The notes: a model not told the origin generated them from the sequence alone. 64,000 nt of DNA from Candidatus Omnitrophota bacterium (GCA_016196545.1 JACPXM010000020.1:4168-68167), one strand, 5' to 3'; counted from the first letter of the stretch, positions 2,815 to 63,701 are shown. Numbers and translations are program-made.

Positions 2815-3582
2815 ATGATTTGCGTCATTTTAGTCGAACCGGAGTCTTCTGACAATATCGGAGCTGTCGCAAGGGCCATGAAAAATATGGGCCTGGCGGA
2901 TCTCAGGCTTATTTTGCCTCCGAAAGACTTCAAAAGGAAGGCCAAAAAAATGGCCATGTCGGCGCAGGGCACCCTTCGCCGGGCAAGGGTTTTTAAGGAT
3001 TTAAAATCGGCCTCCAAAGATTTGCAGTTTTTGATAGGAACAACCCGTCGGTTGGGGAAAAAAAGAGGCTATTCACTGGAGTTTTCCGAGGCCCTTTATA
3101 AACTTTTAAGCTCAGGGCTCAAGTCCGGGATTGTCTTTGGCAAAGAATCCAAGGGATTGGCGAATTCGGATTTATCTCTTTGCGATGCCGTTGTAACGAT
3201 TCCTTCTTCTTCAAAATATCCTTCGCTTAATCTTGCCCAGGCCGTGATGATTTTTGCATTTGAGTTATTTTTTAAATCATCCCAAGCGAAGGCGGGCCGG
3301 CCGGCTCCAGCCTTAGTCTCCAAGGCCAGAATTCACAACATCCTTCAATGGATGCATGAGGCCTTAACGGTCCTTAAATATCACCCTGAAGTCATCCAAC
3401 GCATTCAAGTTACTTTTTCAAATTTGTTGAAGCGAGCGGGTTTGGAAGAACCCGAGGCACAGATGTTCACGGGATTGTTTCAAAGAATCCATCAGCAAAA
3501 ATCAATCGGTACCAGGTTCCTTTTTAAAAAAAGGAACCTGGTACCTTTCGGGGCTCCATGCTACAATTTTCCGCATGAATGA
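2815..3582 (+). CDS. trmJ: SpoU/TrmH-family RNA 2'-O-methyltransferase, TrmJ-like
   Basis: ICVILVEPESSDNIGAVARAMKNMGL matches the TrmJ N-terminus (E. coli [26 protein letters not shown], from memory). The ATG at 2815 directly abuts the minus-strand GDPD start at 2814. Confidence 0.75.
   Translation: MICVILVEPESSDNIGAVARAMKNMGLADLRLILPPKDFKRKAKKMAMSAQGTLRRARVFKDLKSASKDLQFLIGTTRRLGKKRGYSLEFSEALYKLLSSGLKSGIVFGKESKGLANSDLSLCDAVVTIPSSSKYPSLNLAQAVMIFAFELFFKSSQAKAGRPAPALVSKARIHNILQWMHEALTVLKYHPEVIQRIQVTFSNLLKRAGLEEPEAQMFTGLFQRIHQQKSIGTRFLFKKRNLVPFGAPCYNFPHE
3507..3547 (+). terminator. perfect 18-bp palindromic hairpin inside the trmJ 3' end, 28 nt upstream of pyrE (terminator/attenuator candidate)
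   Basis: ggtaccaggttccttttt / aaaaaggaacctggtacc is a perfect inverted repeat followed by tttcgg. Its right arm AAGGAACCTGGTACCTTT recurs at 43151. Confidence 0.4.
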
Positions 3583-4123: not shown

Positions 4124-4170
4124 AACAAACCGGGGACAGGTTTGAATTTCAAGCCTGTCCCCGGTTTGTT
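4124..4170. terminator. bidirectional intrinsic terminator between convergent pyrE and the minus-strand secreted-protein gene
   Basis: 16-bp perfect stem acaaaccggggacagg / cctgtccccggtttgt with a 13-nt loop. A T-run follows the stem on the minus strand. Confidence 0.6.
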
Positions 4171-43172: not shown

Positions 43173-44273
43173 GGAACGGGGTTTATCGGAAGAAATAAAG
43201 GGCAATTCGCGGGTCCGTGCCGAAATTTCAGAGTCCGCTGTTTTAATCATTACTTCCTCACTCATACCAAAAGCCTCTTTTGTGACATAGCCTAAGGCAA
43301 TACCCTTTCCAAGCGTCGGTGAAAAACACGCGCTTGTAATCCATCCCGCTTCCAAGCCGTTTTTTAGGACCTTGTTCCCGGATCCCGGGAGCGGACCTCT
43401 CTCGAAGACAAATCCCGTCATTTTTCGCTGGAGTCCCCCGTAAGTTTTTACCCGCGCCACGACTTCTTGTCCTGGATAACAGCCTTTCGTTTCGCTTGCG
43501 GCAAGGCCTTCCAGGCCGGTTTCAGGGAGGGAAATATCCTCGTCCACGTCAATCCCGTAACGAAGCACGCCCGCCTCAATTCTTAAAATTTCACTGGTTC
43601 CATGTCCCACGGGTTGCAGCCCGTAAAGTTTTCCCACCACCATGACACGCTCTGCAACCCGCATGGCGTTTTCTTTGGCCACCGTCAAATGATAGCCCCA
43701 TTCCCCGGTGCGGCTGATGCGGATCACGGTGACCTCCACATCCCCCATGTGAAAATTTCCATGCTGGCGCTTGGAGAGTTCGGGAAAGGGGCCGGGAAAA
43801 AGCGTGTGGGCGAGGGCCTCGGAGCGCGGTCCCTGCAGGGCGAGCAGCGCAAAGTCCTCCGTGATGTCGCGTAATTTTACGTCTTCATTAATAAGGTATT
43901 TATTAAGGTGGGAAATCAGCCGCTTTTCCATCCCCATATCCACGCCCAGCAAGATGGAATTAGCAAAGACAAGGACATTCATATCCATTAAAATCTTTCC
44001 CGTGGCCGTCAAAAGCGCCGCATAACAGCCGTTTCCCAATCCCAAATTTTGAATGTCATTGGAAAGCATGCGATGAAGAAATGCGGCGCGGTCTTTTCCC
44101 GTCACTTCGATTTTCCCCCGGTAGGACTGGTCAATTAATCCCACGGCTTTTCTTACGGCATGATATTCAGTTTGAAAATCCTTAAAAAGGGAAGGGATGC
44201 GCCAATCTTGTTCTACCTTCAGAGTTGCCCCAAGGGATTCCCACAGGGGGTTGAGCGGAAGATCACGAATCAT
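43170..44273 (-). CDS. GcvT-family folate-binding protein (aminomethyltransferase / YgfZ-like)
   Basis: ...KAVGLIDQSYRGKIEVTGKDRAAFLHRMLSNDI... is characteristic of the GcvT N-domain. Confidence 0.65.
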   Translation of the reverse strand: MIRDLPLNPLWESLGATLKVEQDWRIPSLFKDFQTEYHAVRKAVGLIDQSYRGKIEVTGKDRAAFLHRMLSNDIQNLGLGNGCYAALLTATGKILMDMNVLVFANSILLGVDMGMEKRLISHLNKYLINEDVKLRDITEDFALLALQGPRSEALAHTLFPGPFPELSKRQHGNFHMGDVEVTVIRISRTGEWGYHLTVAKENAMRVAERVMVVGKLYGLQPVGHGTSEILRIEAGVLRYGIDVDEDISLPETGLEGLAASETKGCYPGQEVVARVKTYGGLQRKMTGFVFERGPLPGSGNKVLKNGLEAGWITSACFSPTLGKGIALGYVTKEAFGMSEEVMIKTADSEISARTRELPFISSDKPRS

Positions 44274-45420
44274 GCTTTGAAATGTCCTCTGCGATTTTAC
44301 GGTGGGGCGAAGGAAGGGGATAGAATTTAAGGCGGTCTGTGGAAATCCAACGAGAAGGACGCGAGCGAGAAGACTCGAGAAGGGGAAGGCCCATTTTCCT
44401 TGTCGTTTGCCTCATTGCCGTTGCCTCTTTTAATTCGAAGACCTCAAGTGAAATTCGGTATTTTGTAAATCCATGATGGACAGTCATGCGATGGGATAGC
44501 AGGGCCTGCCTTGCCCCGGCACTCGATTTTATGCGACGCATCATTTCATTTCTCGTTTTCCAAAACGGGAATATCCAAAGACCGCCCCAGCGCTCGTCAA
44601 GGGACTGCTTTTGAATTAAGACGTGGCCGTTCCTTCTTAAGATTAAGGCATAATTCCTGATTTTTTCAATAGTTTCTTTCCGTGCCTTCACCGGAAATTT
44701 TTCGGGGTTTCTCCCCTGAAATCCCAGGCAATGGGATTTTAGGGGGCAGGCCGGGCAGCGGGGAGCGTCGGGAAGACAAACCGTTGCCCCCAATTCCATC
44801 AGGGCCTGATTAAAATCACCGGGGTGGAAATCTTTAGACAGAAAGGGATTACGATTGGCCCCGACAAGCGTTGATGCGATGCCCCATAATTTTTTTTGAC
44901 CTTCCGTGGAATCTGCCGGCGTCTTGATTGCGAAAAACCTTGTGAGGACTCGAATCACATTCCCATCCAGCACTGGCACCCTTTCTCGGAACGCAATACT
45001 TGCAATGGCCCCTGCTGTGTAGCGGCCGATACCGGGAAGTGTCATCAACTCGGAGGCCGTTTCAGGGAAACGCTTATTTATAGCAAGCCTTTTTGCAGTT
45101 TCGTGAAGCATTCTGACGCGGCGGTAATAGCCAAGACCCGTCCACAATTTCATTACTTCCTGGAGAGATGTTCGCGCCAAAGATGTAAGGGAGGGAAACC
45201 GCGCAATCCAACGTTTGTAATAGGGGATCACGGTTTTGACCTGTGTTTGTTGCAGCATAATTTCTGAGATCCAAATCTTGTAGGGATCTTTCGTCTGCCT
45301 CCACGGTAAATCCCTCGCCCTCAGCCGATACCATTTAAGAAGGCGATTTCGAAACAACGGATGCGAATGCATGAAATGAAAGTACTGAATTCCGCCTTCA
45401 AAATCAAGGATTAAAACCAA
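44263..45420 (-). CDS. mutY: A/G-specific adenine DNA glycosylase
   Basis: LLKWYRLRARDLPWRQTKDPYKIWISEIMLQQTQVKTVIPYYKRWIARFP plus a C-terminal NUDIX-like domain. True start is probably the internal ATG near 45372. Confidence 0.85.
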   Translation of the reverse strand: MVLILDFEGGIQYFHFMHSHPLFRNRLLKWYRLRARDLPWRQTKDPYKIWISEIMLQQTQVKTVIPYYKRWIARFPSLTSLARTSLQEVMKLWTGLGYYRRVRMLHETAKRLAINKRFPETASELMTLPGIGRYTAGAIASIAFRERVPVLDGNVIRVLTRFFAIKTPADSTEGQKKLWGIASTLVGANRNPFLSKDFHPGDFNQALMELGATVCLPDAPRCPACPLKSHCLGFQGRNPEKFPVKARKETIEKIRNYALILRRNGHVLIQKQSLDERWGGLWIFPFWKTRNEMMRRIKSSAGARQALLSHRMTVHHGFTKYRISLEVFELKEATAMRQTTRKMGLPLLESSRSRPSRWISTDRLKFYPLPSPHRKIAEDISKHDS

Positions 45421-45460: not shown

Positions 45461-45570
45461 CCGCTACCTCCCCCCACCCGGTGTTTAAAAGCTTTTTCAC
45501 ACCGAGTGGGGGGAGGGTTGCCGGGAGAATGACAATTGCACGAACTGGTAGACACCCCCTGGTACTTTTT
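45461..45570. repeat. composite GC-rich repeat: a 50-nt near-perfect palindrome (45467-45516) fused to a 45-nt module shared with 48520-48576
   Basis: cctccccccacccggtgt...acaccgagtggggggagg, with 1 mismatch in 18 bp. Then gttgccgggagaatgacaattgcacgaactggtagacacccc. Confidence 0.55.
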
Positions 45571-45594: not shown

Positions 45595-46716
45595 GTGTAT
45601 AATCGAGCCGTGGCGAAACGGACCTTAGATCAAATATTGGCCGAACACACGCGTGAAGGCGAGCTTTACGAAAAGCTGCCGGATGGGAGAATCCGCTGCT
45701 TCGCCTGCGGCCACCGCTGTCCGATCCCGGAAGGCCGGGCCGGTGTTTGTAAAATCCGTTTTAATCAAGGTGGAATTTTGCATGTCCCCTGGGGTTATGT
45801 CGGCGGCCTTCAAGATGATCCCGTCGAAAAGAAACCCTTTTTCCATGCCATGCCCGGGGTGCGTGCGCTCAGCTTCGGGATGCTGGGATGCGACTTTCAT
45901 TGCAGCTATTGCCAAAACTGGATTACAAGTCAGGCCCTTCGAGATCCCGAGGCCGTTTCCCCGCCGGTTGAAATTTCCCCCAAAGAACTAGTAAATTTAG
46001 CGATCGAAAGGCAATGTCAATTGGTCACGAGTACTTATAATGAGCCTTTGATTACAAGTGAATGGGGCATTGAAATTTTTAAAGAAGCGAAACACCGCGG
46101 CCTTGTGACGTCCTATGTCTCAAACGGAAATGGAACGTCGGAAGTCCTTGATTATATTCAACCTTGGGTGGATCTCTATAAAGTGGATCTAAAAAGTTTC
46201 GAAGACAGTCACTATCGGGAGCTTGGCGGCGCTCTAAAAAATGTTTGCGAGACAATCCGCGGGCTTTACGAGCGCAAAATCTGGCTGGAAGTCTTAACGC
46301 TCTTAATTCCGGGATTCAATAATTCTGATGAGGAACTTACCCGCCTTGCGGAATTTCTCGTTTCGGTTTCGCCCGATATCCCCTGGCATGTAACGGCCTT
46401 CCATAAAGATTACAAAATGATGCACTCTGAAAACACACAACCGGAACATCTTCTCCGCGCTGCAGAGATCGGAAAAAAAGCGGGGATTCGTTACCTCTAT
46501 CTCGGCAATCTCCCCGGCCAGGTGGGAGGATGGGAAAATACAATTTGTCCGGAATGCGGAGAAATCCTAGTCCGGCGATTTGGTTTTAAAGTTCTCTCCG
46601 ATTTCCTTACGAAATCCGAAGGTTATTGTCCTAAATGCCGATACAAAATCCCAGGGTTTTGGAAGAAACCAACGGTTCACCGGAGTTCAGAAGGTTATGT
46701 GCAACCTCTCCTGTAA
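45595..46716 (+). CDS. radical SAM enzyme (AmmeMemoRadiSam-system / PflA-like type)
   Basis: N-terminal CFACGHRC...C zinc-ribbon-like Cys cluster, then the CDFHCSYCQN CX3CX2C motif. Confidence 0.7.
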   Translation: MYNRAVAKRTLDQILAEHTREGELYEKLPDGRIRCFACGHRCPIPEGRAGVCKIRFNQGGILHVPWGYVGGLQDDPVEKKPFFHAMPGVRALSFGMLGCDFHCSYCQNWITSQALRDPEAVSPPVEISPKELVNLAIERQCQLVTSTYNEPLITSEWGIEIFKEAKHRGLVTSYVSNGNGTSEVLDYIQPWVDLYKVDLKSFEDSHYRELGGALKNVCETIRGLYERKIWLEVLTLLIPGFNNSDEELTRLAEFLVSVSPDIPWHVTAFHKDYKMMHSENTQPEHLLRAAEIGKKAGIRYLYLGNLPGQVGGWENTICPECGEILVRRFGFKVLSDFLTKSEGYCPKCRYKIPGFWKKPTVHRSSEGYVQPLL

Positions 46717-54086: not shown

Positions 54087-54137
54087 CGGCCAAGATTCGC
54101 TTCGTCATTGCGCGTCATTGCCGGTACAATACCTCTT

Positions 54138-55403
54138 ATGAATTCACAAAAAAAATCATTCCTGATCATTGGCGGTGGGATTGTGGGGCTTGCCACAGCG
54201 CGCGAAATTTTGCTTCGTAACCCTGAAGCGAAAGTTACGGTTCTAGAAAAGGAATCACAAATTGCCCTGCATCAAAGTGGCCACAATAGCGGTGTTATTC
54301 ATTCCGGAATTTATTACAAGCCCGGCACCGAAAAGGCCAAGACTTGTCGCGAGGGGATTCGTCTCCTTCATGAATTCTGTGAGGAAAAAGGAATTGTGCG
54401 CCGGCGTGTGGGGAAATTAATTATCGCAATCTCGGAAGAAGAAAGACAGCGGCTTGGTCCGCTGAAGGAGCAAGGCCTTGCAAACGGGATTAAAGATATT
54501 AAGCAAGTCCGTCAAGACGAAATCAAAGGTTATGAACCTTCCGTTTCAGGAATTGAAGGAATCTATCTTCCGGAAGTCGCGCTTGTAGATTTTAAGGAGG
54601 TCAGTGAGGCGCTCAAGGCGGATATTGAAGCGCATGGCGGGGAAGTGGTCGTGCATCGTAAGGTGACGAAAATTGTGAGATTGCGAGATCGGACCCCTTT
54701 ACCTTTATCCTCTCCCCCTTTAAGGGGGGGAGGGCAGGGTGAGGGAGAAATTATTGTTCTTGCCGACAATTGCGAATACAAAGCCTCTTTCCTCATTAAT
54801 TGCGCGGGTCTTTACAGCGATAAAATTGCAAGGCTTTCCGGGCTTTACCCAAGAGTCCGAATCGTTCCCTTTCGCGGCGAATATTTCTGGCTCAATCCGG
54901 AAAAAGCAAAACTTATCCGAGGGCTTGTCTACGGGGTTCCCGATCCACGGCTTCCATTTTTAGGCATGCATTTAACTCCGACCTTGGAGGGACGCGTCAA
55001 AGTGGGACCCAATGCCGTCCTTGCCCTCGCGCGCGAAGGCTATTTTTCAAATCAAATCAACGCCCAAGAGACATTTGAACTTGTGGCTTCACCCGTCTTT
55101 TGGCGAATGGCATTACGTTATTGGAAAACAGGAATTTCTGAAGTGATTCATTCCCGGATGATGAATTTTTATCTGGCCACGCTTCGGAAATTTCTCCCCA
55201 CGGCGGAAATTTCAGATTTAACGCCGGGTCCTACGGGCGTGCGTGCGCAGGCCGTCGATGAAAAGGGCCAGCTCGTAAGTGATTTTTATTTTATGGAAGA
55301 GTCCGACGCCTGCCATGTCTTGAATGCCCCGTCTCCGGCTGCCACTGCTGCCCTCGCCATTGCCAAGCGCGTCGTGGATCAAATCAAGATGCAGGATTTT
55401 TAA
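54138..55403 (+). CDS. FAD-dependent oxidoreductase, L-2-hydroxyglutarate oxidase (LhgO)-like
   Basis: FAD motif SFLIIGGGIVGLATA. HNSGVIHSGIYY is typical of LhgO-like enzymes. Confidence 0.65.
   Translation: MNSQKKSFLIIGGGIVGLATAREILLRNPEAKVTVLEKESQIALHQSGHNSGVIHSGIYYKPGTEKAKTCREGIRLLHEFCEEKGIVRRRVGKLIIAISEEERQRLGPLKEQGLANGIKDIKQVRQDEIKGYEPSVSGIEGIYLPEVALVDFKEVSEALKADIEAHGGEVVVHRKVTKIVRLRDRTPLPLSSPPLRGGGQGEGEIIVLADNCEYKASFLINCAGLYSDKIARLSGLYPRVRIVPFRGEYFWLNPEKAKLIRGLVYGVPDPRLPFLGMHLTPTLEGRVKVGPNAVLALAREGYFSNQINAQETFELVASPVFWRMALRYWKTGISEVIHSRMMNFYLATLRKFLPTAEISDLTPGPTGVRAQAVDEKGQLVSDFYFMEESDACHVLNAPSPAATAALAIAKRVVDQIKMQDF
54694..54747. repeat. GC-rich palindromic element inserted in-frame in the LhgO-like gene
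   Basis: cccctttacctttatcctctccccctttaagggggggagggcagggtgagggag encodes RTPLPLSSPPLRGGGQGEGE. It shares the module ccctcaccc..ccctc with the acnA element. Confidence 0.5.
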
Positions 55404-56334: not shown

Positions 56335-56423
56335 ATAGAATAATCACTTTATTTAACAGAAATTCGCAAAAAGTCAAAAGAATTAAGAGCACTTTTGCCT
56401 TGTGCCCTTCTAAGGAGTTAGCT

Positions 56424-57521
56424 ATGAAATCCTATCGTGTAACCTTAATTCCCGGAGACGGTGTGGGTCCAGAAATCGCAGATACGGCCAGGGCCTGTAT
56501 CGATGCCACGGGCGTTGCCATCGACTGGGACATTCAGCATGCCGGCCTTGAGGTCATGGAAAAGGAAGGGACGCCGCTTCCGGAGCGCGTGATCGAATCT
56601 ATTCGTAAAAACAAGGTGGCGCTCAAATCCCCGATTACCACGCCGGTCGGCACCGGATTTCGTTCCGTGAATGTCGCACTTCGCAAGGAACTCGATTTAT
56701 ATGCCTGCCTCCGGCCCTGTAAATCTTATGAAGGCGTCCGGTCACGATATAAGAATATTGATCTTGTCATTGTGCGCGAAAATACCGAAGACCTTTATGC
56801 CGGCATCGAATTTCAAAAGGGTACCAAGGAGGTTCAGGAGATCATTGCCGCGATTGAAAAATATTCCGGAAAAAAAATACGTCCCGATTCAGGCGTCAGC
56901 ATTAAACCCATTTCCGTTTCGGGTACGGAACGCGTGGTAAAATTCGCGTTTGATTACGCACGCCAGTATAAACGTAAAAAAGTCACAGCAGTTCACAAGG
57001 CCAATATTATGAAATTCTCCGACGGCCTTTTTCTTGAAGTCGCGCGCGAAATCGCCAAAAAATACACGGACATTCAATTTGAAGACCGCATCGTTGACAA
57101 CATGTGCATGCAGCTTGTACAGGTGCCGGAACAATACGATGTCCTCGTTCTCCCGAATCTTTACGGTGATATTTTGTCGGATCTTTGCGCGGGTTTAATC
57201 GGAGGACTGGGCGTGGCTCCCGGCGCAAATATTGGAACCGACGGAGCCCTTTTTGAAGCAACGCATGGCTCCGCGCCTAAGTATAAAGGCCTTAATAAGG
57301 TCAATCCCACGGCCGTGATTCTTTCCGGCGTGCTGATGCTTCGCTATCTGGGTGAGACCCAGGCGGCGGACAGGCTGGAAAGGGCAATCGCCGAGGTGAT
57401 TCGAGAGGGTAAAAACGTGACTTATGATATGAAGGCCGATCGCAAGGATCCTACCGCCGTGGGCACGCGCGAAATGGGGCAGGCGATTATCGATAAAATG
57501 AAGAGAACTGTTAATGTCTAA
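56424..57521 (+). CDS. icd: NAD(P)-dependent isocitrate dehydrogenase (isocitrate/isopropylmalate dehydrogenase family)
   Basis: [14 protein letters not shown]-terminus. aaggag RBS. Lies next to mdh and acnA. Confidence 0.6.
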
Positions 57522-58437
57522 AGTTACGGTTGTCGGAGCGGGATTTGTCGGCGCAACCACGGCGCAACGATTAGTCGAAAAAGATCTCGCGGATGTGGTG
57601 ATGATTGACGTGGTGGAAGGTCTTCCGCAAGGCAAGGCGCTTGATATGATGGAATCGGCGCCGATTGAAGGTTTTAAATCCAAAATTGTCGGATCGAATG
57701 ATTATAAAGACACTCAAAATTCTGATATTGTTGTTGTGACTGCAGGAATTGCGCGTAAGCCCGGAATGACTCGCGATGATTTGGTAAATACAAACGCCGG
57801 AATTGTCGGAAGCGTTGTCACTGAAGCCGTAAAATATTCTCCCAAGGCGATTTTTGTTATTGTTTCCAATCCTCTTGATGTGATGACTTACCTTGCCTGG
57901 AAAAAAACGGGACTCGATACGAAGCGCGTTTTCGGAATGGCGGGCGCGCTTGATTCCGCGCGAATGGCTTATTTTATCGCGGAGGCCGCGGGCTGTCTTC
58001 CTTCCGAAGTTGACGCCACCGTGCTCGGCGGCCACGGCGATGAAATGGTGCCTGTACCCGCGCTCACCAAAGTCAAAGGCAAGTCGATTACGGAAGTTCT
58101 CAAGGCCGACAAAATCGAGGCCATCAATCAACGCACGCGCGACGGCGGCGCGGAAATTGTGAAATACCTCAAAACCGGAAGCGCCTTCTACGCGCCATCT
58201 TCTTCCGTCGTCCGAATGGTAAGCGCGATTCTGCAGGATAAAGGAGAAGTTATTCCTTCTTGTGTTTATCTCACGGGTCAATACGGCTTAAAAGACGTTT
58301 ATTGCGGGGTCCCGGCCAAACTTGGTAAGGGAGGCGTGAAGGAAGTGGTGGAAGTGAAATTATCCCCCGCGGAAAAAGAGGCCCTCCAGAAGTCCGCAGA
58401 GCACGTGCGTGAAAACTGCGCGAAACTAAATTTATGA
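57514..58437 (+). CDS. mdh: malate dehydrogenase (LDH-like family)
   Basis: [15 protein letters not shown], and [19 protein letters not shown]. Confidence 0.85.
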
Positions 58438-58461
58438 AAAGGATTATTTGAGATTATTAAA

Positions 58462-61263
58462 ATGAGCGGCAAGCATTTATTGAAGATTAAGGGGAAAGAT
58501 TATCACTTCTTTCGATTAGAGGTCTCTAGGAAACTTCCCTATTCCATCCGGATTCTGCTGGAGAATTTACTGCGGCATGAAGATGGAAAAGCGGTGCGGC
58601 GGGAAGATATTGAGGCGCTTGCAGCGTGGGATTCTAAACAGACATCGAATAAGGAAATTGCCTTTATCCCTGGCCGGGTGATTCTTCAGGATTTTACGGG
58701 GGTTCCCTGTGTTGTTGATCTGGCTGCGATGCGCGACAAAATCCGTGAAATGCGGGGCGACGCCAAAAAGATCAATCCGCTTGAGCCCGTGGATTTGGTG
58801 ATCGACCATTCCGTGCAAGTCGATGCCTTCGGCTCTCCGGAAGCCTTCCGTAAAAATGTGGAGCTTGAATTCCAAAGAAATAAAGAACGCTACCAATTCC
58901 TTCGCTGGGGCCAGCAGGCCTTTAGAAATTTCCGCGTGGTGCCGCCGGGAACGGGGATCGTTCATCAAGTAAATCTCGAATATCTTGCCGGTGTCATTCT
59001 CACCAAAAAAGTTGGAAACGAAACACTTCTTTATCCGGACACGCTGGTTGGAACGGATTCTCATACCACGATGATTAATGGCCTGGGCGTTCTGGGTTGG
59101 GGGGTGGGCGGCATTGAGGCCGAGGCTGCAATGCTCGGCCAGCCCATTTCCATGTTGATTCCCGAAGTCGTGGGATTTCGCTTCACCGGAAAACTACAAG
59201 AGGGTGCCACGGCAACGGATCTTGTATTGACGGTTACTGAAATGCTCCGCAAAAAAGGTGTGGTTGGAAAATTCGTGGAATTTTTTGGTCCCGGGCTGGA
59301 TCATTTGACGCTCGCCGATCGCGCGACGATTGCCAATATGGCTCCCGAATACGGGGCAACCACGGGCTATTTTCCCGTGGATGTTGAAACTATGAACTAT
59401 CTTAGATTAAGCGACCGGCAGGCAGAACACGTCGAATTAGCAGAGGCTTATTTTAAAGAACAAGGGCTTTTCCGTACTCCAAATTCTCCTGAGCCCGTTT
59501 TCTCCGACACGCTTGAATTAAACCTTTCCCAAATTGAAGCCAGTCTTGCCGGTCCCAAAAGACCCCAAGATCGAGTCGCCCTGAAAAAGGTAAAACAAAA
59601 TTTCCAAGAAACTTTAAAAACAATCATAAAAGGAAAACCGTTGCCTGAAACGGACCCGAGGCGCGTCAATCATTGGCAGGCGGAAGGCGGAAGCACGAAG
59701 CCCTTAGCTGCCCAATTGCAAAAGGAGCCGTTGGAAATTTCTGAGCCGGTTGAAATCCGGACTGAAGATCAATCTTTCAAAATCAATCATGGCTCTGTGG
59801 TGATTGCTGCCATTACAAGCTGCACGAACACATCCAATCCCGCGGTGATGATGGGCGCGGGGCTTCTTGCGAAAAAGGCAGTGGAACGTGGTCTCAACGC
59901 CAAACCTTGGGTGAAAACTTCGCTGGCCCCGGGTTCCAAAGTCGTGATGGATTATTTGGAAAAGACGGGGCTTAAGACCTATCTTGAGAAATTAAATTTT
60001 CATTTGGTAGGCTACGGATGCACCACGTGTATCGGAAATTCGGGGCCGCTTCTCGAGGAAATCGGTGCTGCGGTCAAAGAAAATGATTTATATGTTGCGG
60101 CCGTACTTTCGGGCAACCGCAATTTTGAAGGACGTGTGAACCCTTTGGTGCGCGCCAATTACCTGGCCTCACCTCCGCTTGTTGTGGCCTACGCGCTCGC
60201 GGGGACCGTCGAAAAAGACCTCACCACGGAACCGCTTGGCCAAGATTCCAAGGGAAATCCTGTTTATCTCAAAGACATTTGGCCCACACAAAAGGAAATT
60301 GAAAACGCGATGCGCGAGGTCGATGCCGCCATGTTTCGAAGACAATATGAAAATGTCTTTGACGGTGAAGAGGCCTGGCGCATCATGAAAGTTCCGACCG
60401 GCGACAATTTTCAATGGGATGAAAAATCCACCTACATCAAAAAACCCCCCTATTTTGAGGGGATGCCCCAAGCGCCTTCCGCTCTTCAGGATATTAAAAA
60501 TGCGCGCGTGCTTGTCAGGGTGGGTGATTCCGTCACAACGGATCATATTTCACCCGCAGGCTCCATTGCCAAAGACAGTCCGGCCGCAAAATATTTAATG
60601 GAGCAAGGTGTTTTGCCCAAAGATTTTAATTCTTACGGGGCCCGCCGGGGAAATCACGAAGTCATGATGCGAGGGACTTTCGCGAATACTCGACTCAAAA
60701 ATGAATTGGCCCCAGGTACGGAGGGCGGCTGGACTCGGTATTTTAATTCGCCCTCACCCCAACCCTCTCCCTCAGGGGGAAAGTTGGGTGAGGGGAATAT
60801 CTCGGTTTATGACGCGGCAGTGGAATATCAAAAACAGGCAACGCCGCTTCTTGTCATTGCGGGAAAGGAATACGGCTCAGGATCCTCCCGTGATTGGGCG
60901 GCCAAAGGCCCCGCGCTGCTTGGCGTCAAGGCCGTGATCGCGGAGAGTTTTGAACGCATTCACCGCTCGAATCTCATTGGAATGGGGATTCTTCCGCTTG
61001 AATTTGAACAAGGTCAAACGCGAAAATCATTGGGATTAACCGGGGAGGAGATTTTTTCCATCGAAGGAATTGCAAAGGATCTTGTACCCGGAAAAAAATT
61101 AGCCGTAGGGGCGCGCCCGGAACCGGGCGGGGAAAATCCCACCCCTCCATCAAAACAATTTTTCGTCAAATGCCGGATTGACACCCCGGTGGAACTTGAA
61201 TATTATCGCCACGGCGGTATCTTACAGTACGTATTAAGACAATTAATAGCAGAAAACAAATAA
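58462..61263 (+). CDS. acnA: aconitate hydratase A
   Basis: Length 933 aa. Fe-S ligand region [10 protein letters not shown] and a C-terminal [17 protein letters not shown]...[21 protein letters not shown] almost identical to E. coli AcnA (from memory). Confidence 0.9.
60749..60796. repeat. GC-rich palindromic element inserted in-frame in acnA
   Basis: cgccctcaccccaaccctctccctcagggggaaagttgggtgagggg encodes [16 protein letters not shown]. The segment is absent from the corresponding E. coli AcnA stretch GGMTRHLPDSDVVSIYDAAM. Confidence 0.6.
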
Positions 61264-61341
61264 CAGAAGACAGAGAACCAATGATCGATAAAACTGTTTT
61301 TTTAATTTTTTGTTCTCTTTCCCCCTATCCTCTGAAGCGAC

Positions 61342-61971
61342 ATGGACGCAAACGACATTAAAATATCCCCCCATTTCTGGCTTAGGCGGCTTCACTCGCT
61401 TTCCGGAGTTTTCCCCATCGGCGCCTTCTTGCTGGAGCATATGTTTTCTAATGCCCTGATTATCAAAGGTCCGGCGGCCTACAATGAACAAATCGCTTTC
61501 TTAAGCGGGCTTCCGTATGTGATTTGGCTGGAAATCTTTTTCATTTATTTGCCCATTCTCTTTCACGCCTTTTATGGTTTTTATGTGATGTTTACGGGAA
61601 AAAGCAATTTGATTTGGTATCCCTATCCGGCCAATTGGATGTATTTTTTGCAGCGCGCTTCAGGCGTTATCACCTTTGTTTATGTGTTTTATCATTTTTA
61701 TCACACACGCGGTGTGAATCTTCTCTACGGGACGGAAGTGAGCTTCGCCCGTATGCAAGAGCTTATGAAAAACCCTGCAATATTTTGGTTTTATATCGTG
61801 GGTCTTTTGGCAGTGATGTTTCATTTCGCTAACGGCCTTTGGGGGTTTTTCATCAGCTGGGGCATAACGATCGGCCCTAAATCCCGCGCGGTTTCAGGCG
61901 TCCTTTGCGCCGGCCTCGGCATAACGCTTTTTGTCGTGGGCGTTAACTCCCTCATTCATTTAATCCCATGA
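61342..61971 (+). CDS. sdhC: succinate dehydrogenase cytochrome b558 subunit (Bacillus-type)
   Basis: Five predicted TM helices with His-containing segments. Directly upstream of sdhA with a 4-nt overlap. Confidence 0.7.
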   Translation: MDANDIKISPHFWLRRLHSLSGVFPIGAFLLEHMFSNALIIKGPAAYNEQIAFLSGLPYVIWLEIFFIYLPILFHAFYGFYVMFTGKSNLIWYPYPANWMYFLQRASGVITFVYVFYHFYHTRGVNLLYGTEVSFARMQELMKNPAIFWFYIVGLLAVMFHFANGLWGFFISWGITIGPKSRAVSGVLCAGLGITLFVVGVNSLIHLIP

Positions 61972-63701
61972 ACTCAAAACCTAAATTCGTAGTGGTGGGT
62001 GGCGGTTTAGCGGGATTGATGACGACCCTCAAACTTGCGGAAGCAGGCTGCCAGATTGATTTAATTTCTGTGGTGCCTTGCAAGCGTTCGCATTCGGTTT
62101 GCGCGCAGGGGGGCATCAACGCCTCGGTTAACACCAAAGGCGAGGGCGACTCTCCACAAATTCATTTCGAAGAAACCATTCTTGGCGGCGACTTTCTTGC
62201 GAATCAGCCGCTTGTGATGGAAATGTGTAAAAATGCCCCGAGCTTTGTTTATATGCTGGACCGGATGGGTGTTCAATTTAACCGCACCCCCGAGGGCCTT
62301 ATCGATTTCCGCCGGTTCGGTGGTACCAAATTTCACCGCACTGCCTTTGCCGGCGCCACCACAGGTCAGCAAATGCTTTACGCACTTGATGAGCAAGTCC
62401 GCCGCTTTGAAGTCGAAGGCAAAGTCATGCGTTTTGAGGGCTGGGAATTTCTTTCGGCAGTGATTGACGACGCCGGCGTTGGCCGTGGTGTTGTTGCGAT
62501 GAATCTCACGAATTTTGAGATTCGAGTCTTCCCTGCGGTGGCTACCGTATTTGCCACGGGCGGCTGCGGCATGATTTACGGCCGTTCCACGATGTCCATG
62601 ATTTGCACGGGCGCTGCGGCGGGCTCGCTTTTTCAGCAGGGTGTTCATTATGCCAACGGCGAATTCATTCAAGTGCATCCCACGGCGATTGCGGGCGAAG
62701 ACAAAAACCGCCTGATTTCCGAAGCCGTGCGCGGCGAAGGCGGCAGGCTTTGGACCTACAAAGAAGGCAAGCGCTGGTATTTTATGGAAGAGTGGTATCC
62801 CAAATACGGGAACCTCGTGCCCCGTGACATTGCCTCACGTGCCATTTTTAAGGTTTGCCGCGAGATGAAGCTCGGCGTGGAGGGCCAGGACATCGTCTAT
62901 TTGGATATTTCGCACATCGATTCGAAAGTCCTTCACGAAAAACTGGGGGGCATCATCGAAATCTACGAAAAATTCATGAATGAAGACCCCAGTAAAGTTC
63001 CGATGCGCGTGTTTCCTTCCGTGCATTATTCCATGGGCGGCATTTATATTGACGGAAGGCATAGGACCAATATTCCAGGACTTTGGGCGGCCGGTGAATG
63101 CGATTATCAGTATCACGGCGCAAACCGTCTGGGCGCGAATTCGCTGCTTTCCGTGCTTCAAGGCGGGCTGACTTCCGCGAAGTCCGCGCAAGAATATGCG
63201 GAAGGTCTAACATCGAGCTTGGATGCAAGTTCCAAATGGTTTGATCAGCAAGTTAAAAAAGAGGAAGCAAAAAATGACGAACTCCTTCGCCGTAAGGGCA
63301 AGGAAAATGCATATTACCTTTGGGAAGAAATGGGGAAGGTGATGACTGACAATGTTACGGTTGTGCGCCACAACAAAAACTTGGAAGCCACCGATAAAAA
63401 GCTTGTGGAATTGAAAGACCGCGCCAAAGAAATTAATGTGATGGACAATTCCAAATGGGCGAATCAAACTTTAGTCTTCACGCGACAGCTCTTAAATATG
63501 CTAGAAATTGCGCGCGTCATTACGCTCGGGGCCCTTGCCCGCAATGAAAGCCGCGGCGCTCATTACAAGCCAGATTTCCCAAATCGCGATGACGCCAATT
63601 GGCTAAAAACCACAGTCGCCAAGTACACACCCAAAGGCCCTGAGCTTTCTTACGAAGCGGTCGATACATCCCTATTGAAGCCGCGGGAGAGAAAGTATTG
63701 A
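61968..63701 (+). CDS. sdhA: succinate dehydrogenase flavoprotein subunit
   Basis: FVVVGGGLAGL...RSHSVCAQGGINA (covalent-FAD His) and HPTAI. Strong similarity to B. subtilis SdhA (from memory). Confidence 0.9.
   Translation: MNSKPKFVVVGGGLAGLMTTLKLAEAGCQIDLISVVPCKRSHSVCAQGGINASVNTKGEGDSPQIHFEETILGGDFLANQPLVMEMCKNAPSFVYMLDRMGVQFNRTPEGLIDFRRFGGTKFHRTAFAGATTGQQMLYALDEQVRRFEVEGKVMRFEGWEFLSAVIDDAGVGRGVVAMNLTNFEIRVFPAVATVFATGGCGMIYGRSTMSMICTGAAAGSLFQQGVHYANGEFIQVHPTAIAGEDKNRLISEAVRGEGGRLWTYKEGKRWYFMEEWYPKYGNLVPRDIASRAIFKVCREMKLGVEGQDIVYLDISHIDSKVLHEKLGGIIEIYEKFMNEDPSKVPMRVFPSVHYSMGGIYIDGRHRTNIPGLWAAGECDYQYHGANRLGANSLLSVLQGGLTSAKSAQEYAEGLTSSLDASSKWFDQQVKKEEAKNDELLRRKGKENAYYLWEEMGKVMTDNVTVVRHNKNLEATDKKLVELKDRAKEINVMDNSKWANQTLVFTRQLLNMLEIARVITLGALARNESRGAHYKPDFPNRDDANWLKTTVAKYTPKGPELSYEAVDTSLLKPRERKY

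Follow-up and report, generated by a model that had tools for sequence, protein, structure and literature searches.

A 54-nt palindrome carried in frame by the LhgO gene of a Candidatus Omnitrophota bacterium, a probable copy of the BoxC/PIT/TM_ECO repeat

The gene for the L-2-hydroxyglutarate oxidase/dehydrogenase LhgO in a 64,000-nt stretch of DNA from a Candidatus Omnitrophota bacterium (GCA_016196545.1 JACPXM010000020.1:4168-68167; the whole stretch is hereafter called the window, and positions are counted from its first letter) carries a 54-nt, imperfect, two-sided palindrome of the BoxC/TM type (54694-54747, plus strand), delimited from the sequence itself, a repeat search, an alignment of homologs and a comparison with a consensus. 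Very probably, this element is one copy of the BoxC/PIT/TM_ECO repeat located in coding sequence, and it is most likely a tolerated passenger that behaves in the manner of the Rickettsia palindromic elements (RPEs). A sister copy lies in the acnA gene, about 4 kb from LhgO in one cluster. BoxC/PIT/TM elements were described some 30 years ago and count as some of the most widely conserved short bacterial repeats, and they have been studied almost only as intergenic DNA of E. coli; the origin of this pan-bacterial repeat has been unexplained since the 1990s. The earlier descriptions of BoxC and PIT are reportedly those of Bergler in 1992, of Bachellier in the 1990s and of Hoyne & Maher in 2000. 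We know of no function or mode of spread for these elements.

The host gene is the open reading frame (ORF) at 54108-55403 (plus strand), which matches the L-2-hydroxyglutarate oxidase equivalog of NCBIfam (NF008726) at 4.6e-143, with 388 profile positions aligned against 408 LhgO residues, and whose modelled structure is best matched by that of Drosophila L2HGDH (Foldseek, 8w7f). A database protein named L-2-hydroxyglutarate oxidase, from Candidatus Omnitrophica bacterium (P0001), is 100% identical to the ORF; since this protein has 421 amino acids, the true start of LhgO probably lies about 10 codons inside the ORF. LhgO residues 196-214 (TPLPLSSPPLRGGGQGEGE) are encoded in frame by the element. 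In an alignment of 30 sequences, i.e. the window protein and 29 homologs with 45-59% identity (no closer relative was found among 5.8 billion proteins), this 19-residue segment corresponds to a gap in 28 of the 29 homologs, and in the sole exception, P0036, the loop holds a short insert of unrelated sequence. The claim of the original prediction that an otherwise ordinary LhgO has received an in-frame insertion is thereby borne out, and no ortholog in the alignment keeps the peptide without the palindromic DNA. Excising exactly 54694-54747 leaves cgg aaa att (R-K-I), which agrees with the alignment of the homologs to within one residue, so that the insertion measures 54-57 nt; it is stop-free within the coding sequence.

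A structural model puts the insertion in what would be a permissive loop. In the AlphaFold2 model of LhgO, which was built on the 30-sequence alignment and has a mean predicted local distance difference test score (pLDDT) of 90.6, residues 195-208, which follow strand 186-192 and precede strand 214-219, have a pLDDT <50, and the remainder of the model superposes on 8w7f with a template modelling score of 0.87-0.93. This suggests that the insert forms an 18-19-residue, Pro/Ser/Gly-rich, disordered loop between two beta-strands, and that the enzyme would tolerate this loop. The length of the loop varies in other homologs too (P0002 and P0036). P0002 contains a 41-residue insert (SSPPACPAGRHGVRRESKDDPRLKACGDDEGVEICGNDTV; alignment columns 257-299) a few positions downstream of the insertion in the window protein, and judging from its sequence this insert looks like the translation of another palindromic repeat family, in which case this region of LhgO would be a recurrent landing site in another lineage.

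From 5′ to 3′ the element is made up of a series of blocks. The left outer block CCCCTTTACC (54694-54703) is slightly diverged from the consensus CCCCTCACC, which is the complement of GGGTGAGGG; the left arm differs from the consensus by one substitution and one extra T. It is followed by a TTTAT spacer (54704-54708) that is diagnostic of a sub-variant, by the pyrimidine block CCTCTCCCCC (54709-54718), which makes up the 5′ arm of the hairpin, by the loop TTTAA (54719-54723), which comparison with full copies identifies as the variable part of the family, and by the purine block GGGGGGGAGGG (54724-54734; consensus GGGGGAGAGGG), which makes up the 3′ arm. A CA spacer (54735-54736) then leads to the third block GGGTGAGGG (54737-54745), the 'third strand' of the triplex motif according to the TM_ECO table, and the last two bases of the element are AG. 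An imperfect inverted repeat had been predicted here, and the sequence is present exactly as quoted; in the repeat search, the 12-nt inner arms (54709-54720 and 54722-54733) are 92% complementary, and the outer blocks pair more loosely than these.

Folding energy was not informative for the LhgO element. Its hairpin is no more stable than those of shuffled sequences (z -1.0 to -1.4), because shuffles of a C-run and a G-run fold too, and hairpin energy was therefore dropped as evidence in favour of sequence identity. An Rfam scan of the whole window gave no family at gathering score. What is decisive for the reality of the LhgO element is thus its identity to a widespread element and not its folding energy.

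The BoxC repeat of E. coli was later given the name PIT element and, after that, TM_ECO, the last denoting a G/C-rich class II intrastrand triplex motif (Holder et al. 2015, PMC4666352). TM_ECO takes the form CCCTC[T/G]CCC-loop-GGGAGAGGG-TTA/CCG-GGGTGAGGG, with TTA in type A and CCG in type B; the K-12 genome contains 23 copies, every one of them intergenic, and the family is found in >260 genomes (PMC4666352). In its two-sided palindromic form the repeat reads CCCCTCACC-spacer-CCTCTCCCC-loop-GGGGAGAGG-spacer-GGGTGAGGG. Both the LhgO and the acnA copies contain the three blocks of the motif, that is, a pyrimidine block, a 1-6-nt loop, the purine complement, a 1-6-nt spacer and GGGTGAGGG, with one hairpin mismatch and one mismatched triad in the LhgO copy (one is allowed by the criteria of PMC4666352). 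Their block architecture and sequences agree with the 23 tabulated TM_ECO copies (PMC4666352) and with the BoxC pair of the E. coli K-12 hrpB-mrcB region, which was taken directly from NC_000913. Sequence identity to the family is found for the acnA copy against E. coli and for the LhgO arms against the consensus. The intergenic location, a descriptive trait of the E. coli copies, is not shared, as both window copies lie inside ORFs with strong family matches.

The TTTAT spacer places the LhgO copy in a sub-variant of wide distribution. A search for the 17-mer ACCTTTATCCTCTCCCC (window positions 54701-54717) in a set with one genome for each GTDB species gave exact matches in at least 120 stretches; chance could account for about 70 matches of a 17-mer in 596 Gb. 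Among the 126 matches listed, 107 are preceded by CCTC, i.e. they have the full CCTCACCTTTATCCTCTCCCC context; most are followed by a loop and GGGGAGAGG, and about a third also by [C/G/A]A-GGGTGAGGGG. The 107 listed copies with CCTCACC-TTTAT-CCTCTCCCC come from many phyla. Hosts of the listed TTTAT copies include Rokubacteria/Methylomirabilota, Omnitrophota, Nitrospirota, Thermodesulfobacteriota, Planctomycetota, Verrucomicrobiota, WOR-3, an Uhrbacterium of the candidate phyla radiation, Clostridia, Thermoleophilia and the cultured Alphaproteobacteria Labrys, Nitratireductor and Alkalicaulis. The consensus of the sub-variant is CCCCCTCACC-TTTAT-CCTCTCCCCC-(1-6 nt, variable)-GGGGGAGAGGG-CA-GGGTGAGGGGG, the loops of 34 full copies being 1-6 nt long with many different sequences. 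The arms of the LhgO element are about 92% identical to this cross-phylum consensus (23/25 positions on the left, 22/24 on the right). A reading of the left arm as random decay of CCCTCACCC-N-CCCTCTCC was rejected, the arm being that of the conserved TTTAT sub-variant. A more generic pattern, CCCTCACCC-N2-3-CCCTCYCC, was scanned against viral contigs and matched at least 120 stretches; 116 of the 149 matches listed have a complementary GGAGAGG arm within 24 nt, and the two-module-plus-hairpin architecture is therefore widespread and not specific to one genome.

The gene for the aconitate hydratase AcnA (58462-61263, plus strand, identified from family matches) carries the sister element, which is 45 nt long and encodes 15 residues (60751-60795, plus strand; CCCTCACCC-CAA-CCCTCTCCC-TCA-GGGGGAAAG-TT-GGGTGAGGG-G). 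Its minus strand reads CTTTCCCCC / TGA / GGGAGAGGG / TTG / GGGTGAGGG, and 23 of its first 24 bases equal those of the hrpB-mrcB BoxC copy of E. coli K-12 (CCCTCACCCTAACCCTCTCCCTCAAGGGAGAGGGG). As had been foreseen from the sequence, the G-rich arm of the LhgO element is complementary to CCCTCACCC-TG-CCCTCC, a module that matches the acnA module CCCTCACCC-CAA-CCCTCTCC, and a second housekeeping gene does carry the same kind of in-frame repeat: 112 of 121 AcnA homologs have no insert of any kind at the site filled in the window, where the native loop is P-E-G-E or similar. Of the only three occurrences of CCCTCACCC in the window, one is in the LhgO element (minus strand) and two are in the acnA element, and the two-module pattern CCCTCACCCNNNCCCTCYCC with up to three mismatches matches these two elements only (0.27 matches expected). 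Being two-sided palindromes, both elements also align directly on the plus strand, where they share one reading frame (P-[S/L]-P ... G-E-G). Unlike that of the LhgO copy, the hairpin energy of the acnA copy is significant, with a z-score of -3.5 for a 76-nt stretch and of -2.5 for the 47-nt element alone.

Inserts rich in Pro/Ser and then Gly were found in four loops of the 121 AcnA sequences, near residues 182, 421, 764 and 883. The window has its insert at the third of these (near 764), a site filled in nine of the 121 sequences, corresponding to eight distinct homologs. The filled sequences have empty ones as nearest neighbours, no two bearers being nearest to one another, and eight changes at this site are required by Fitch parsimony on a neighbour-joining tree of the 121 sequences. 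A single ancestral insertion was rejected in favour of recurrence on account of these eight changes and the scattered bearers, many parallel losses being formally possible; the distribution thus favours a loop that has been filled recurrently and independently. In the DNA of three loci (L121, L122 and L246), full elements are present in frame at the AcnA loop sites, with three in-frame acnA elements on the syntenic Omnitrophota-type contig L121 and three to four on L122. The gene order icd-mdh-acnA-sdhCAB is common to L121 and the window, and the acnA of L121 contains an in-frame CCCCTCACCTTTATCCTCTCCCCCTTCAAGGGGGAGAGGGAAGGGTGAGGG, which is nearly the LhgO element and belongs to the same sub-variant. 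A pyrimidine-hairpin scan located two elements in the window, three in L121 and five in L122 (two of them in a glycosyltransferase), all inside called genes.

Coding copies were also present in the unbiased cross-phylum sample, in which at least five of the 107 listed copies are in frame inside proteins recognised by Pfam, namely an arginase family protein, QueA, a PRPP synthetase, a PGM/PMM protein and a YjeF_N-PAS-GGDEF protein. The host proteins read the element in different frames and in both orientations (PSPLSSP, PHLYPLP, GEDKGEG), and the sole frame closed to translation is the one that reads GGG-TGA-GGG. In the PGM/PMM gene of a Thermoleophilia metagenome-assembled genome (MAG; L201, 2338-2432), the element is tandemly duplicated together with its flanks, forming two copies of a 26-residue unit (QMTKNGSASPDPSPPRGEDKGEGATP). 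This duplication is consistent with the local genomic instability that has been associated with the TM_ECO motif (PMC4666352). Furthermore, the AcnA homologs P0133, P0142 and P0172 contain, near the position of window residue 188, the peptides ...VMLSEATRLRVRHTSLSAAKPRSREHLRDPSASPQDD, KQSHEIASLTSFARNDI and ...MTSPGIASASLGLSPRND, which are typical of other short-repeat families; from these peptide sequences, the AcnA loops of these phyla appear to be colonised by several different repeat families.

In our interpretation the element is most likely a passenger, i.e. selfish or by-product DNA that amounts to neutral baggage for the enzyme and is not a functional part of LhgO, and its consequence for the enzyme is probably nil. 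The copies carried by genes would then be the survivors of a filter: their length would have to be a multiple of three, the TGA frame of GGGTGAGGG would have to be avoided, and the landing site would have to be a permissive surface loop.

A number of points weigh against this interpretation. 'Passenger' is the default, and a role at the DNA or RNA level, through the hairpin or a G-quadruplex, is possible. We infer the mobility of the element from sequence, and neither a target-site duplication nor an empty/filled polymorphism accompanies it. That is, no target-site duplication was seen at the AcnA site when four filled alleles were compared with one empty allele, none was apparent in the LhgO flanks on reading the sequence, and no direct repeats flank the five filled sites in comparison with an empty site; in JGI metagenomes, the LhgO flanks had no matches and the acnA flanks of L122 recovered only the filled allele. 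Only two copies are visible in the 64 kb of the window, related contigs having three to five each, so that the element is no more than putatively multi-copy in this genome. The genic count for L121 and L122 is in part ascertainment-biased, inserts in AcnA having been the reason for their selection, and 10 genic copies out of 10 is not significant at a coding density of about 90%. Moreover, that the insert is transcribed and translated together with LhgO is something we infer.

To our knowledge, no transposase is associated with the BoxC/PIT/TM_ECO family. The empty AcnA site of P0148 (L247, ~2700-2765) reads ccc gag ggt gag and resembles the ends of the element (CCC... and ...GGTGAG), a resemblance that may reflect microhomology-guided insertion or may be coincidence. 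P-E-G-E was considered as an excision footprint and rejected, the loop being probably native: the homologous position of E. coli AcnA has what we take to be P-D-S-D. A bolder proposal, which we put forward tentatively and would not expect to hold, is that the BoxC/triplex-motif element is actively spreading in Omnitrophota and several other uncultivated phyla and colonising coding sequences, the same permissive loops being hit repeatedly (AcnA about eight times), perhaps under the guidance of microhomology. If so, conserved genes would give datable filled-versus-empty sites and a first handle on the mechanism of insertion. No link of TM_ECO to mobile elements is known (PMC4666352).

The best surviving alternative, which we nevertheless hold to be improbable, is a nucleic-acid switch within the coding sequence, in which hairpin, G-quadruplex and, in DNA, intrastrand triplex would alternate, pausing RNA polymerase or ribosomes or altering mRNA stability, and which would have been selected for regulating genes related to the tricarboxylic acid (TCA) cycle. 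On the sense strand and in the mRNA of LhgO the hairpin is immediately followed by five tracts of three or more Gs, the purine block, CA and GGGTGAGGG together reading G7-A-G3-CA-G3-TGA-G3, a canonical G-quadruplex pattern; a switch between G-quadruplex, hairpin and duplex has been proposed for the same motif of E. coli (bioRxiv 10.1101/032615), and the conservation of the stems across phyla, with variable loops, suggests a constraint on the element itself. However, earlier work found that TM_ECO forms a stable triplex in vitro without leaving a triplex footprint in vivo, and reported neither promoter or terminator activity nor an effect on RNA polymerase (PMC4666352). Moreover, the G-tract run of the acnA copy is on the template strand, so that the two copies in the window would not act alike, the genes that carry the element in the various phyla have unrelated functions (arginase family, QueA, PRPP synthetase, PGM, glycosyltransferase), and most LhgO and AcnA homologs have no insert.

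Still less probable, in our view, is that the insert is an adaptive, lineage-specific protein loop, serving as a linker, as an interaction surface or for solubility, whose likeness to a DNA repeat would be a matter of origin or coincidence. This would fit with the insert being stop-free and kept in two enzymes of essential pathways, and with similar peptides recurring in the same AcnA loop. Yet the DNA is about 92% identical to the non-coding consensus of unrelated phyla, whereas selection on the protein would allow synonymous drift; all three frames of the left arm as well as the opposite strand are used across hosts (PLSSP, PHLYPLP, GEDKGEG), and therefore no single peptide has been selected; and the AlphaFold2 model predicts disorder. 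Lastly, a chance palindrome or a MAG assembly artefact, which the LhgO fold z-score of only -1.0 to -1.4 and the capacity of repeats common to community members to confuse assemblers might suggest, can practically be dismissed: the exact 17-mer and the arm identity of about 92% to a consensus found in >100 independent assemblies are not what chance produces in 64 kb, the flanks continue one reading frame and align to homologs on both sides, unlike a mis-join, and independent assemblies (ENA, NCBI and JGI) of a relative have identical filled acnA alleles.

As a copy of BoxC/PIT/TM_ECO, the element shares with the known members the same three blocks in the same order, conserved stems with a variable loop, and an occurrence in many phyla, and in its palindromic layout it is reminiscent of the pairs of inverted TM copies in E. 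coli. It differs from them in several respects. The copies of E. coli are always intergenic, whereas the two window copies lie inside genes and are read in frame; in the window a third block flanks a single hairpin on either side, giving a compact palindrome of 45-54 nt; and the TTTAT spacer differs from both of the E. coli ones, TTA (type A) and CCG (type B). Among the matches listed, a third block on both sides was found in two of the 149 generic viral ones, as against about a third of those of the TTTAT sub-variant. In Enterobacter sp. 638, the core hairpin CCCTCTCCCXX(X)GGGAGAGGG occurs 100 times; it is described at the 3′ ends of genes and presumed to act as a terminator (PMC2869309). The core hairpin is the same as in the window elements, and no coding copies were reported there (PMC2869309).

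The closest functional analogy is with palindromic dispersed repeats that are found in frame in housekeeping genes, in several genes per genome, and are tolerated through landing in surface loops. The RPEs described by Ogata et al. in 2000 are said to be about 100-150 bp long and restricted to Rickettsia, and the QMITEs of Coxiella are reportedly in-frame MITEs (transposable elements of miniature size with inverted repeats). An in-frame palindromic repeat at permissive sites is what the window elements have in common with both, without the family sequence and size of the former or the terminal inverted repeats and target-site duplication of MITEs such as the latter. Unlike RPEs, to which it has no sequence relationship, an element of the window type is 45-54 bp long, G/C-rich and >90% identical across phyla. 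A short (20-50 nt), G/C-rich, imperfect palindrome with a conserved stem, a variable loop and many copies also recalls REP elements (repetitive palindromes of extragenic DNA) and REPINs. According to PMC3733652, these are palindromes mobilised by REP-associated tyrosine transposases (RAYTs) and bear a GTAG/CGTC tag. The LhgO element ends in CCCC... and ...GGGAG and has neither GTAG nor CGTC, and REPs, unlike the window copies, are extragenic by definition. We know of no RAYT association for BoxC/TM.

A search of one literature collection returned no report of the BoxC/PIT/TM family or its characteristic peptides inside coding sequences, an absence that does not prove novelty, and a search on the TTTAT variant or the insert peptides returned nothing relevant. 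The coding context of BoxC/PIT/TM copies thus appears to be undescribed. The element and its wide conservation have already been published, and what appears to be new is its genic, recurrent and cross-phylum behaviour, in a presumably translated, two-sided palindromic guise. This would widen 'selfish DNA in protein-coding genes' from Rickettsia to free-living and uncultivated phyla by way of a wholly different element. As orthologs preserve the empty state, insertion sites can be placed exactly, and target preference, timing and recurrence become measurable. For annotation, Pro/Ser/Gly-rich loops in MAG proteins (PSPxPSP...GEG, GEDKGEG, PLTFILSP) should be read as repeat-derived and not as lineage-specific protein features.

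The acnA gene of the window belongs to a conserved TCA-cycle cluster, icd-mdh-acnA-sdhC-sdhA(-sdhB), which spans 56400-63701 and is also present in loci L121, L122, L246 and L247. Variable small genes, among them NYN, MazE-like and DUF5674 genes, are inserted on one or the other side of acnA, in the mdh-acnA or the acnA-sdhC interval.

Other palindromes occur in the window. A near-perfect one of 50 nt (45467-45516; CCTCCCCCCACCCGGTGTTTAAAAGCTTTTTCACACCGAGTGGGGGGAGG) is located within the 174 nt that separate two divergent ORFs, one mutY-like (44263-45420, minus strand) and the other of radical-SAM type (45595-46716, plus strand). This palindrome was considered as a third family member and rejected, having only a C-run in common with the elements and not being widespread, with no match in 248 loci and one in viral contigs; its role may be that of an operator or of a site for bidirectional regulation. 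Two further strong palindromes, at 4124-4170 (23-nt arms, 96% complementarity) and at 3508-3545 (18-nt arms, 100%), may be terminators.

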